DNA of 64,000 nt, taken from assembly GCA_037305845.1 (NCBI GenBank), contig CP147778.1:2592001-2656000 (forward strand). The letters are read 5' to 3'. This document shows positions 8,014 to 19,308 of the stretch, piece after piece. The translations under genes were made by a program, and so were the position numbers. The DNA comes from Candidatus Freyarchaeum deiterrae (GTDB lineage Archaea; Asgardarchaeota; Jordiarchaeia; Jordiarchaeales; Jordiarchaeaceae). How positions within the stretch are numbered: the stretch's first letter is position 1; each line of letters opens with the position of its first letter. The notes beneath the pieces were generated by a model. That model searched no databases. It was not told where the DNA came from and saw only the letters and a list, made by a program, of their open reading frames with translations.

Positions 8014-8685
8014 TTAGATATTATTGAGATATTCTGAATATTCTGTGGGATCAGGTATTCTTGCTTCCTTGAATGCTTTTCTTCGGTTTACACATGATTC
8101 ACATTTTCCGCAATGTTTTGGTCCATTAAAATAGCATGACCATGTTAATTGGAAGGGGACACCGAGTTTTGCTCCTAATTTTAGGACTTCCGACTTTGGA
8201 ATATTACTGAAGGGGGCATCTATGTTTATCGCGGTTTCCGTTCCTAATTGTGCCGTTTTTTCAAAGGATTTGTAGAACTCTTTTCTACAGTCTGGATAAA
8301 AAGGAGCATCTGAGCCTTGTGCTCCATAGAAAACTTTTGTTGCGCCAATTGAAACTGCATAAGCAACAGCAACTGAAAGAAAAATAGCGTTTCTAAATGG
8401 AACTATGATAGGTTCGCTGAAAGATGAAGTCATGTCAATACTTTCATCACAAAGAGAGGTTACTCCAACAAATATTTCGTTAAGTGAACTTAGGTCTATC
8501 TCTTTGATTGGAATTCCAAGTTTGTCTGCTATCATTATTGCGTGCTTAGTTTCTTTCGTTGCGATTTGACCATATTTAACAGTTAATGCATATTCATTAT
8601 ATCCTTCTTTTTTTGCCCAATAGGCTAGAGTAGATGAGTCAGGTCCTCCGCTTAGCACTACAACGCATTTGTTGGCATCGCTCAT
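8014..8685 (-). CDS. queC: 7-cyano-7-deazaguanine synthase QueC
   Basis: LSGGPDS PP-loop, VPFRN, YPDC, TWSCY and CGKCESC Zn motif. Confidence 0.95.
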   Translation of the reverse strand: MSDANKCVVVLSGGPDSSTLAYWAKKEGYNEYALTVKYGQIATKETKHAIMIADKLGIPIKEIDLSSLNEIFVGVTSLCDESIDMTSSFSEPIIVPFRNAIFLSVAVAYAVSIGATKVFYGAQGSDAPFYPDCRKEFYKSFEKTAQLGTETAINIDAPFSNIPKSEVLKLGAKLGVPFQLTWSCYFNGPKHCGKCESCVNRRKAFKEARIPDPTEYSEYLNNI

Positions 8686-8700
8686 TTTTATGACCTCTTG

Positions 8701-9123
8701 TTATATCGACCCTAGAACCTCAATCACTTCCTCTACTGATTTGTAGATGCCCCTCATCGGGACTTCTATAATTAAATTTATATCTTCTATCTTTGAAAAG
8801 GTTCGGTAGTCGGTCTTCAGTCCAATAATGGGTTTACCCAGAGCCGCTGCGTATCCGATTTCAAAGGCAACACCAGACTCGACATCTATTCCATCCAGCA
8901 CTGCAACTACTACATCACTCTTCTTAAGTGCTGTGGTGTCTGTTTTATAAATGGTGGTTTTCTCCTCCTTTGTTCCCTCGTTTATGAATAATGTCTCCTG
9001 AGCCATCCAGACCTTAAAGCCGGCGTCTCGGAGCCTTTTGACGATTTTCTCATTGAATGCTCGTTCGCTTTCACTGAACAAAGGTGAAGCTAAGAAAATC
9101 TGCATCCAAAATTCTCCTTTCAT
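8701..9123 (-). CDS. nucleoside 2-deoxyribosyltransferase / nucleotide N-glycosidase family protein
   Basis: IFLASPLF, D..ALKKSD, LDGxDVESG, and FEIGYAAALGKP carrying the catalytic Glu. Real start may be the second Met (MQIFLAS). Confidence 0.88.
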   Translation of the reverse strand: MKGEFWMQIFLASPLFSESERAFNEKIVKRLRDAGFKVWMAQETLFINEGTKEEKTTIYKTDTTALKKSDVVVAVLDGIDVESGVAFEIGYAAALGKPIIGLKTDYRTFSKIEDINLIIEVPMRGIYKSVEEVIEVLGSI

Positions 9124-17900: not shown

Positions 17901-18498
17901 CGACTACTCTTTCAGTAACATCTTCACGTGCTCTTTTGGAAACTTTTTCGTCTTCTGTTAGTCCGCTGATTACGTCAAAATAATATTTAAATGTTTCAGG
18001 ATGTAATGATAAAAGCAAGACAAAATATTTGTTACTATCTATTTTTTCTATTTTATTATCAACAAGAGATCTAAGGTCGTTTAAAAATTTTTTTTCTTCA
18101 TCTGATAATGTTGATTCTTCGCCTTCTCTCTTTTCTATTAGTTTTTGTGCTTCGTCTAAAAAAATTAATATTCCACTTTCTTTTTGTTTAGCTTGATTAT
18201 AAGCTTTTTGTAGAATATCTGCCAAATCTGGAATTTTGTCCAAATCCTTATATATAACTTCTAGTTTACCCCATCCACCCTCATCTTCACTCTTACTGAA
18301 TTTTTCTCTTAACTCTTCTATAATAGTTGTTTTTCCTTGACCATATTCTCCTATAATATTGATTATAATTAGCTGTCTTCCTGCATTGTTTTTTATTAAT
18401 TCTTTAATCTCTTCGAGTTCTAGATCATATCCTACTGGGGATATCTTTTTACCTCCAGGTGCCCCAACTTGGGGAAAAGGGTTTGGTATTTTTCTCAT
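14941..18498 (-). CDS. large P-loop ATPase (AAA+/STAND-like N-terminal domain, helical/coiled-coil C-terminus)
   Basis: N-terminal NPF, Walker A GEYGQGKT, Walker B IFLDEAQ, later NPR motif; 1185 aa. Confidence 0.82.
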   Translation of the reverse strand: MRKIPNPFPQVGAPGGKKISPVGYDLELEEIKELIKNNAGRQLIIINIIGEYGQGKTTIIEELREKFSKSEDEGGWGKLEVIYKDLDKIPDLADILQKAYNQAKQKESGILIFLDEAQKLIEKREGEESTLSDEEKKFLNDLRSLVDNKIEKIDSNKYFVLLLSLHPETFKYYFDVISGLTEDEKVSKRAREDVTERVVVKRYDLRDLDYFSAYEIIRRYMESEGYKIEDFFDESVINSIFAITPRVHEGRVGVNKKNPRTYVQIFFELFENLWRKEGKKIDINKIKEVLINKNPEIKVGDVSVSLKDPAFLRNIVTAFDEKTKELFYYLLFNPKWHIIKDLPNQYKDIIEKFEHAIRREAILIQCNQYNIQLKELEINPTLKEKFQGLEKERIFHNGEAYYILFVDIADDDLRKYLDDEFGIIRVIRISDEYLKKIYGFSPEIESKFAEKIKEYMDKDPILKHENVQEIIRNELRYSKRTCTHTSISYSYIDGEFEIIPDSKVVYEVAIFYHPEKYSDFIDSYVNEIKVELEGIKADLGIIVLDPYTTEPKREAATAIRKMENRLFIEKLDKKGLGEILNSNIDVIKKIIRDSVSTYINEAVEKGFTIPFTGLQEKIKQSEGILFDAVSMDIDRSLQVELKRQFERESSSYSSICIEGGNLGGEIGTVEKAVDGGLRNLAIETLSEFMELAENGKIIGSKVSKYEKQFLSLFREEEVRVDEFKNSVKKYFTSYSRIQQYEFLSKILTTRKLIEIKDERIKLIGPNNLLSQALELIKNISKEDIPGATLSKAEKTILGKLKLELDDISSEDFSKMDYNKKSIYNKRISYIIDKISDFYVKPDDDLVQEIKKIHQNVNDLLLREIVEGIKLADTNLINFEIKKSEEKEELSKIKDTLKEYNLPSDNFLQAWSQKIAVKLCLVSNSMNKKTVEDLSTRIYNLFFKTDNVMLLRSTLETIKKELERGYEILQEAEKFLSETIVEFNTALNIYEQWKKYESIRVDISQPRREDEILKDLEIKYPGKLNGSLEKSRLRELAKSDLFLLKDYVDFLKRNCDEDTLMSIEKMVSEINELFVRYPEWEKYLSENMECKGTTNFEKYLYLIQNLPENRYILLEALLKNGKNDDFAQDDLKNIIRNLKCKPSKIEEIFNDGLLYRNTITSEFRDGGSIKKKQEIRYKIIREKVAS

Positions 18499-19308
18499 TT
18501 AATCCCTCCATTTTAATAAGGTGAATGCGGCTGGAATGGGTGGCTTAGGGAGTCCTCCAAGAAAAGTTATTTTTTCTTCTTTGTATAATTCGATTAATTT
18601 TTGAAAAATAAGTGGTATATTTAACTCTTCCTTTGTACCTGTATAAAATTCATGATAATTATTAATTAATTTTTGACATATAACTTTTGTTAACTCAAGC
18701 TCGGTTTCTTTTAACAGCCTTTTAACCAGTTTTTGAAATTTATCTTTATCAAATTTTAATTTATATTCATCAGAAATTTTGTAATAATCACTATCTTCTA
18801 ATTCAATTACACCAAGATTTTTAAAACAATTAAAAGTATTATCGAAACTTATTCTATCATATATTCTAACTCCAAAATCTTTAGAAGAATTCTCAACTAG
18901 AAACTCGAATAATTCCTCTTTTGTGAATTTATAGTAACTTTCTCTCAAGATAATATTGTAAGCATAATTATACCAAAAAATTCCTGAATATAATGCATCA
19001 TGAAGAAATCTGCATTTCCTACTTACTTCATCAATTTCTAAGTAATGTTCACCATTATCGGTAAGGGTATATTGCTGTTGAGCTTTTTTAGCGTCAGGAT
19101 TTTCTAAATTAATAAAACCAATTTTTTTTAAAAACTCTAAATGACCATCTCTTGTCTTTGCGTCAAATCCATTTTTGGGAATATTCTCTTTAAACTCTTT
19201 TTTTCCAGATTTATTATCAAGATGTTGAAGAATTTTTTCGATATAATCCTTCCAATCTTTTACTAACATTATAGACCATGTAGTATGCAAATTATGCCGC
19301 ATCCCCAA
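18499..19308 (-). CDS. tandem winged-helix DNA-binding protein, first gene of the operon
   Basis: Two wHTH-like repeats (FLKKIGFI...YTLTDNG; FKNLGVIE...YKIS). Its stop abuts the ATPase ATG (TAAATG). Start is probably ATG 19302. Confidence 0.65.
   Translation of the reverse strand: MGMRHNLHTTWSIMLVKDWKDYIEKILQHLDNKSGKKEFKENIPKNGFDAKTRDGHLEFLKKIGFINLENPDAKKAQQQYTLTDNGEHYLEIDEVSRKCRFLHDALYSGIFWYNYAYNIILRESYYKFTKEELFEFLVENSSKDFGVRIYDRISFDNTFNCFKNLGVIELEDSDYYKISDEYKLKFDKDKFQKLVKRLLKETELELTKVICQKLINNYHEFYTGTKEELNIPLIFQKLIELYKEEKITFLGGLPKPPIPAAFTLLKWRD

Follow-up and report, generated by a model that had tools for sequence, protein, structure and literature searches.

A transglycosylase–sliding clamp cassette in Candidatus Freyarchaeum deiterrae as a candidate archaeal system for marking and restricting DNA

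In the literature that was searched, deazaguanines in DNA have been measured in bacteria and viruses, and the cellular archaeal systems, BREX-related capture (BRC) and BRIGADE, are predictions. Of the Dpd system it is known that the guanine transglycosylase (TGT) DpdA of Salmonella is inactive without the ATPase DpdB, a ParB-fold dimer that has been modelled as enclosing a DNA-sized tunnel (PMC10164549). BRC systems are defined by PglZ, DUF6079, DUF4007, a STAND NTPase and a GNAT protein, with a TGT in a subset only, and self-marking by deazaguanine has been proposed for them (PMC12839542). Here a nine-gene cassette is described from the Asgard archaeon Candidatus Freyarchaeum deiterrae, which lies at 8014–19308 on the minus strand of the window, this being the whole stretch of 64,000 nucleotides that was analysed (contig CP147778.1, positions 2,592,001 to 2,656,000 of the forward strand). 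Its genes encode, in order, a winged helix-turn-helix (wHTH) protein, a large ATPase, a protein referred to as X, NurA, HerA, a DpdA-like TGT, a PCNA clamp fused to wHTH domains, a nucleoside 2-deoxyribosyltransferase-family protein (NDT) and QueC. It is proposed, with a probability of roughly 0.7, that the TGT and the clamp place preQ0 at a motif of the host DNA and that the wHTH protein, ATPase, X, HerA and NurA degrade DNA without this mark.

The cassette is expected to work like Dpd, yet it is not a canonical Dpd system, and its nearest published architecture is that of the predicted BRC systems. Shared with Dpd are the TGT fold, the DpdA catalytic set and the zinc site (PMC10164549, PMC5699537), a possibly DpdG-like wHTH gene preceding a large ATPase gene, the occasional presence of preQ0 genes and the DpdJ- and DpdK-like effectors of sister loci. 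It differs in that none of DpdB, DpdC, DpdD, DpdE and DpdF is found among the nine proteins (Pfam, PADLOC and NCBIfam profiles; no genome-wide search for DpdB or DpdC was made), in that its archaeal TGT family is undetected by DpdA models, and in that it has a private PCNA and a TGT tail resembling a PCNA-interacting peptide (PIP) box. NurA and HerA replace DpdJ and DpdK: the DpdJ helicase and the DpdK phospholipase D (PLD) protein are absent at the window locus, whereas 23 sister clusters carry DpdJ-like genes, as a split pair, along with a gene resembling DpdK. With BRC the cassette has in common a TGT without DpdB or DpdC and, at class level, HerA, a multi-wHTH protein of the BrxA-like type and an ATPase of the ORC/Cdc6-like type (PMC12839542). 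On the published description it is set apart from BRC by its nuclease, which is NurA, and by the TGT being the constant part of the cassette family. The nine genes have no match to PglZ, GNAT, a stand-alone STAND NTPase, DUF6079 or DUF4007, and the BRC paper mentions neither PCNA, NurA nor QueC (PMC12839542). BRIGADE, also predicted, resembles Dpd as well; this archaeal system combines deazaguanine genes with YprA helicases and a PLD protein and is comparable to the effector module B described below. It is confined to haloarchaea and has two YprA helicases, its text contains no PCNA, and no HerA-NurA is described in the part available (PMC12458937).

By sequence, the closest protein from a genome with measured DNA deazaguanine is the DpdA of the virus STSV2, whose DNA contains dCDG and whose dpdA adjoins ArcS2 (10.1101/2023.04.13.536721). 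It is 27% identical to the cassette TGT, scores 83 bits against the family profile (38 bits for the TgtA of the host) and has the same P-x-(I/V/L)-H motif and the same basic patch following the nucleophile, while its ArcS2 neighbour recurs in 23 clusters of the family; but it is viral and shorter, it lacks the zinc site and the tail, and it is not accompanied by a restriction module. Type IV CBASS (cyclic-oligonucleotide-based antiphage signalling system; Cap9/Cap10) and QatABCD also have QueC and a TGT fold in a defence context; the cassette differs from both in having no CD-NTase, QatB, TatD or conserved N-terminal glycine (the motif as defined in 10.1101/2025.04.06.647259), in its canonical QueC and in the retained zinc site. 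The housekeeping HerA-NurA(-Mre11-Rad50) operons share with it a HAS-barrel HerA adjoining NurA, whereas the cassette operon has no Mre11 or Rad50, is patchily distributed and encodes a HerA that is only 27–28% identical to the two other full-length HerAs of the host. The novelty lies in a private clamp paired with a PIP-tailed transglycosylase and in effectors, HerA-NurA included, that can be exchanged. This is in partial agreement with the novelty claimed by the first-pass annotation: no full PADLOC system is found in the cassette, where PADLOC recognises single parts only, such as HerA and QueC, and profile searches of the cassette proteins give no match to DpdA, DpdB, DpdC, CD-NTase or TatD, as that annotation had noted for all of these except DpdA, but BRC and BRIGADE are partial precedents that it did not name. 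No literature was found that links DpdA with archaea and PCNA, or a transglycosylase with BREX, HerA, NurA and PCNA, most subscription papers lying outside the search; the paper on HerA capture does not mention TGT, NurA or PCNA.

All nine open reading frames (ORFs) are intact, and from the wHTH gene to QueC the intergenic distances are 0, -4, 4, 8, 51, 1, 75 and 15 bp; the co-orientation, the spacing and the gene assignments that had been put forward are borne out by the ORF positions and by profile searches. The first-pass annotation had treated the two arms as one system, while allowing for two adjacent modules that meet at the 51-bp gap between HerA and TGT, and had named their co-occurrence in other genomes as the check. 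They do co-occur, in many archaeal loci, as seen when the synteny is read from the TGT, the ATPase and the NurA as separate anchors. The TGT anchor gives 90 loci, which cluster at 90% into 75 clusters, 71 of them informative for the clamp. Anchoring independently on the ATPase gives eight contigs, all of which carry the wHTH gene, NurA, HerA and the same TGT family (one is cut by the contig end), and seven of which also carry the clamp gene and ArcS2/DUF5591. Locus L084 has the gene order of the window, with QueT in the place of NDT, and L119 has this order with ArcS2. The NurA anchor, applied to 400 Asgard genomes, adds two loci from complete genomes in which wHTH-ATPase-NurA-HerA stands behind a TGT of another clade; one of these TGTs matches DpdA models (2e-8) and the other has a DpdC/YaaA-like neighbour (2e-5). 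Since the effector half lies beside a TGT wherever the contig is long enough, the 51-bp gap does not divide the cassette into two unrelated units, and the possibility of two adjacent modules is largely removed; nor is the gene set a chance arrangement, as it recurs in many unrelated archaeal loci.

The HerA-NurA arm is supported as part of the system, though not as a fixed part, being one of at least four interchangeable modules. Module A (wHTH-ATPase-X-NurA-HerA, as in the window) is seen in 15 clusters. Module B, the commonest with 23 clusters, consists of an ATPase, a 315-residue protein, a split DpdJ-like helicase with DUF1998 (1e-43) and a DpdK-like PLD protein (3e-8); PADLOC did not identify its ATPase or its 315-residue protein as DpdH or DpdI, and such names would therefore be positional only. 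Module C, with HerA, a 1450-residue protein and NurA, is seen in 10 clusters, and module D, with a BrxD-like ATPase, in five; because many contigs are short, these and the accessory-gene counts are lower bounds. No effector module is seen at L010 and L091. Modules A, B and D alternate within one strongly supported ten-member TGT clade, from which it follows that effectors have been exchanged; the tree is a quick one, supported by SH-aLRT only, and is not used to name a donor or to orient any transfer. Across the four modules the large ATPases are homologous (hhalign, 88–99.6%).

Several related arrangements were observed alongside these modules. The module C loci (L007, L071-L073, L080, L081, L085 and L092-L094; one is from a Desulfurococcales metagenome-assembled genome) comprise TGT, in some cases a divergent stand-alone PCNA, ArcS2, HerA, the ATPase-like protein of about 1450 residues and NurA. 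On haloarchaeal plasmids (L127:8784-15328 and L128:4744-12827) a TGT, a hypothetical protein and a BrxD-like ATPase homologous to that of module D (4e-20) are found with a second TGT-annotated protein of 960–1160 residues and, in one case, QueD. At L014:559-10198 a TGT of the family is followed by a PglZ/alkaline-phosphatase-like protein, a wHTH protein, a 1377-residue protein and HerA, which is a BRC/BREX-like effector option for the family. A second TGT clade, longer at about 390–440 residues and with weak DpdA matches, is present in other Asgard genomes at L111 (G026:C1:2738000-2757900), L112 (G024:C13), L146 and L147, where it adjoins either DpdJ-like helicases with UvrD and PD-(D/E)XK genes or the wHTH-ATPase-NurA-HerA module. 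At L112 two TGTs stand in tandem, and L147 carries a DpdC/YaaA-like gene as well. These four loci are probably further archaeal Dpd-like systems.

The signature gene of the family is the TGT (10505–11563, minus strand, 352 residues). Its profile match is weak (PF01702, 1.2e-5), and its model is a TGT barrel, with Z-scores of 25.1 to the tRNA enzyme arcTGT, 18.3 to DpdA and 16.9 to Cap10. Residues D49, D83, H124, H193 and D216 and the zinc ligands C266, C268, C271 and H288 are invariant across the 75 clusters, and position 53 is phenylalanine or tyrosine in all of them. A DpdA-type active site is therefore present (D49, F53, D83, H124 and D216 with a CxCxxC..H zinc site), corresponding to Asp95, Phe99, Asp130, His181 and Asp256 of DpdA (PMC10164549), although the zinc spacer is 16 residues as compared with 22 in DpdA. 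The protein has no C1, C2, PUA or other tRNA-binding domain, His124 is a glutamine in the host TgtA and is common to the STSV2 DpdA, and the score of 26 bits against TIGR00432, whose cut-off is 350, places it outside arcTGT. At E ≤ 1e-10 the family has 194 relatives, the best 120 of which share 48–58% identity; those named come from Bathyarchaeia, Nitrosopumilaceae, Heimdallarchaeaceae, Verstraetearchaeota and two WOR-3 bins. The distribution is patchy: 3 of 400 Asgard genomes and 3 of 401 genomes in a second phylum sample have a member, and none is present in the ten class relatives searched, five of which are congeners that are 87–99% complete. No member occurs in viral contigs, and the sole TGT matches in GenBank phages are the distant DpdA proteins of STSV1/2 (best E 3e-13).

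The clamp gene (9199–10503, minus strand; the database gene call begins at ATG 10473) encodes a PCNA of about 255 residues followed by a tandem wHTH region of about 155 residues. The PCNA part matches NF002221 at 2e-18, and its model (predicted local distance difference test score, pLDDT, 89) superimposes on Sulfolobus PCNA with a Z-score of 25.7 and a root mean square deviation of 2.5 over 236 residues. It is a two-domain PCNA fold with an intact PIP pocket, in which D46 and P236 are invariant, and it is 18% identical to the PCNA of the host. The structure model of the C-terminal part is wHTH/FokI-like. In the full library 24 relatives are found at E ≤ 1e-10, a clamp gene is present in 59 of the 71 informative clusters, and in some relatives it is a divergent stand-alone gene of about 250 codons (hhalign, 91%).

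The TGT ends in a PIP-box-like tail (residues 345–352; 10508–10531, minus strand), which is supported by a register alignment and by a model of the complex. When counted from the conserved tryptophan in the last helix, the tail is in PIP-box register in 58 of the 75 clusters, where positions 4, 7 and 8 are hydrophobic; six family members have the canonical glutamine at position 1, and the window tail aligns with these without gaps. No clamp gene is seen at any of the six loci with the canonical Q-led box. The corresponding counts (6 of 16 clamp-less loci against 0 of 59 with a clamp, raw p 4e-5) are not taken as a statistical result, since three of the six loci belong to one clade and three are too short to show that the clamp is absent. 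In the model, residues 344–352 of the TGT are placed in a groove of the clamp formed by residues 45–52, 135–138, 235–236 and 251–256. It is in such a groove that PCNAs bind PIP boxes. The modelled contact has a score of 0.62 (best control 0.00), a mark reached by 58 of 80 solved pairs and by 2 of 110 mismatched pairs; the runs agree in at least 84% of the contacts and the partner pLDDT is at least 82. At L067, L068 and L069 the TGT has no tail and the clamp domain of the adjoining fusion has decayed (1–7 bits, versus more than 100 in the intact examples checked), which is possibly a joint loss, as judged from the sequences. As DpdB is modelled as encircling DNA, a clamp is a fitting substitute for it, and by analogy the private clamp probably takes the role of DpdB. 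The predicted tethering of the TGT to a DNA clamp is also the best argument for DNA being its substrate.

The proposed restriction arm begins with the multi-wHTH protein (18499–19308, minus strand, 269 residues from TTG 19308, or from ATG 19302), which is DpdG-, BrxA- and FokI-recognition-like. Its structural neighbours in the Atlas are BrxA (TM 0.53), FokI recognition domains (0.55) and a DpdG-containing cluster (0.50), the DpdG feature match of 0.88 being a lead only; it shares homology with the wHTH part of the clamp fusion (hhalign, 93%), and its position directly before the ATPase gene is conserved in relatives. The ATPase (14941–18498, minus strand, 1185 residues) is a large ORC/Cdc6-like AAA+ scaffold of the DpdH/BrxC-like type (PF13401/PF00004), with its Walker A motif at 50–57, the Walker B residues D115 and E116, and H166, R197 and R260 invariant in 13 relatives; a DpdH match, obtained for the ATPase of a relative, is faint (0.017). 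Sequence searches of the PDB with these two proteins gave nothing specific. Gene X (14336–14944, minus strand, 202 residues) is a conserved domain that is either split from or fused to the ATPase C-terminus: orthologues lie between ATPase and NurA at L113, L115-L118 and L120, and X is fused to the ATPase at L114. It gave no Pfam or Atlas lead, its structure model is poor and it has no P-loop motif. NurA (13207–14331, minus strand, 374 residues; PF09376, 9.8e-13) is predicted to be an active nuclease, as D64, E118, D142 and the GYP motif are invariant and H333 is nearly so among 11 orthologues. The HerA translocase (11615–13198, minus strand, 527 residues) matches PF01935 at 1e-35, has a HAS barrel (PF09378) and retains the Walker A, Walker B and arginine-finger motifs.

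The two remaining genes, which had been counted in the modification arm, are accessory rather than core: NDT has no homologue at any other TGT locus, and among the 75 clusters QueC is found in five, as compared with 23 for ArcS2/DUF5591 and four for QueT/ECF. QueC (8014–8685, minus strand, 223 residues) is an accessory preQ0 synthase that scores 188 bits against TIGR00364 (cut-off 150). Its SGGxDS, VPxRN, YPDC and zinc motifs are present, with a His-to-Ala change in YxQxHxxE, and its zinc spacer of seven residues is the same as in the host QueC; it belongs with the canonical QueC proteins (cluster 1), which have about 222 residues, these same motifs and a tyrosine in the zinc motif (PMC13082051). 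It is 71% identical to the QueC beside QueT and TGT in L005. The NDT gene (8701–9123, minus strand; PF05014, 2e-23) is an accessory or a hitch-hiker: copies are present in three of five congeners without the cassette, and a 78% identical paralogue (G000:C1:249139-249660) adjoins genes resembling a restriction enzyme and Vsr, so that, on sequence, NDT seems to travel among the defence islands of the genus. The idea that it serves in salvage was dropped, having no syntenic support. A fusion of a class II glutamine amidotransferase (PF13230) with a wHTH domain (3097–4203, plus strand), 3.8 kb from QueC, was considered as a split Gat-QueC partner and rejected, as it is found in no other locus. The host genome, a single contig of 3,576,204 bp, separately encodes TgtA, ArcS (with an adjacent radical-SAM-like gene), QueC, GTP cyclohydrolase IB, QueD with a QueE-like neighbour, one PCNA and the two other HerAs. 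With this housekeeping set the cassette genes are extra copies, and preQ0 should be available.

In the proposed mechanism, the TGT would remove guanine at a motif of double-stranded DNA and insert free preQ0 in its place, by a double displacement involving Asp216 and Asp49 as in DpdA, with preQ0 coming from the host pathway and being boosted by the extra QueC. The private PCNA ring would hold the enzyme on DNA through the PIP-like tail, in place of the ring-shaped ParB-type DpdB, and a role in loading or targeting this ring is possible for the fused wHTH domains. The mark at the window locus would likely be dPreQ0, and in relatives with ArcS2 it would probably be matured to archaeosine (dG+). 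Then, in the predicted order of events, the wHTH protein and the AAA+ ATPase, with X, would recognise unmodified sites, such as those of a virus or plasmid, and allow HerA to drive the DNA through NurA.

Several observations weigh against this proposal. The nearest solved structure is arcTGT, ahead of DpdA and Cap10, and the PADLOC models of DpdA give no match at E ≤ 0.1, PDLC02807 being empty across the genome. The GC content differs between the halves: the effector half (30.5%, 0.06th genome percentile) belongs to the AT-richest parts of the genome, whereas the modification half (37.9%, 15th percentile) is unremarkable, and this step from 30% to 38% suggests separate histories of the halves. 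The tail is shortened or lost in about one fifth of the family members, and some have no clamp gene. Because many PCNA–PIP structures have been solved, the pass of the complex model shows likeness rather than binding. A milder caution is that the published PacBio motif calling in Freyarchaeia gave five m4C motifs only, with no G-centred signal and no deazaguanine calling described.

The archaeal pair HerA-NurA is known from repair, and the TGT and clamp could mark DNA while HerA-NurA and the ATPase serve in repair, in processing of TGT intermediates or in maintenance of an element; the mark would then mainly shield an integrated element from the restriction enzymes of the host. That deazaguanines block restriction enzymes (PMC6884629) and that a few loci show no effector module (L010 and L091) would fit this explanation, which is nevertheless unlikely, since the host has two other HerA copies, since no locus is in viral contigs and since the module swaps freely with DpdJ/K-, BrxD- and PglZ-like effectors among close TGT relatives. 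In a reversal of roles, the TGT would read rather than write, recognising or excising deazaguanines in modified viral DNA such that an abasic or covalent intermediate triggers HerA-NurA. Base exchange can run in either direction, deazaguanines occur in archaeal viruses such as STSV2, and glycosylases against modified phage DNA have been described (10.1101/2025.10.29.685425); against this, the partner modules are the Dpd ones, and in Dpd DpdA is the writer, and the recurrent linkage to QueC, QueT/ECF and ArcS2 (and of DpdC-like and QueD genes to distant TGTs) fits a writer, which makes a reader quite improbable.

A second tRNA- or RNA-modifying enzyme whose position is incidental would account for arcTGT being the best structural match and for the label tRNA-ribosyltransferase that databases give to the homologues. 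The missing PUA and C-terminal domains, the histidine in place of glutamine, the PIP-like tail, the near-constant clamp and the DNA helicase and nuclease neighbours, in a host that has its own TgtA and ArcS, make this very unlikely. The least probable alternative is that a protein is deazaguanylated, or a signal made, in the manner of type IV CBASS or Qat: QueC would conjugate the base to a glycine at an N-terminus, and binding or transfer of the base would fall to the TGT. QueC and TGT are both near neighbours here, and the wHTH protein would start with Met-Gly from the TTG codon, but an N-terminal glycine is not conserved in any partner family, there is no CD-NTase or QatB-like gene, the full-length canonical QueC is missing from most loci, and the TGT keeps a zinc site that Cap10 does not have.

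The cassette sits in a low-GC island alongside other nucleases. Its neighbours there include a beta-CASP-like/metallo-beta-lactamase protein (window 2–1822, minus strand) and a GIY-YIG nuclease (20201–21067, plus strand); a membrane protein (6604–7929, plus strand) has a PLD-like C-terminus by eye and no family match. Two uncharacterised proteins (5431–6372, plus strand, and 2188–2898, minus strand) are matched at L040 by two homologues (1.5e-17 and 3.9e-6), both lying upstream of the TGT, and may be loosely linked defence genes; one of them resembles by eye an EVE-type plus restriction-endonuclease fold, with no library match. No attachment sites are found, the repeat search having given AT-rich chance matches only, and no empty insertion site can be defined in the congeners. 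About 0.5 kb to the left of the window (L004, about 19260–19600) a CAG-type run encodes some 110 glutamines within an ORF, and at 26224–29008 of the window aminotransferase and toxin-antitoxin fragments are duplicated near IS200/IS605-like tnpB genes; either of these may be real repeats or assembly artefacts.

The odds are about even that these loci form a widespread archaeal immune family, in which a dedicated PCNA paralogue with a co-evolved PIP box, or the host clamp with a canonical PIP box, makes a base-swapping enzyme processive or replication-coupled, so that it writes preQ0 or archaeosine into the DNA of the cell and plugs into at least four restriction modules. If true, no defence system known to us before it would mark self DNA by means of a private sliding clamp. 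Standard tools miss it, as seen with the PADLOC DpdA model and with the published DefenseFinder/PADLOC inventory of the host genome, which lists CRISPR-Cas, restriction-modification, Hachiman and DISARM and does not name the cassette locus (PMC11529989). A two-gene writer of TGT and clamp would be easy to reconstitute and is a possible DNA-labelling tool. It also bears on the open question of what DpdB does for DpdA: should a PCNA ring be able to stand in for DpdB, the need is for tethering or processivity. The family is a concrete and compact archaeal candidate, Asgard archaea included, and it predicts that archaeosine, a tRNA base, would be present in cellular DNA where ArcS2 accompanies the cassette.

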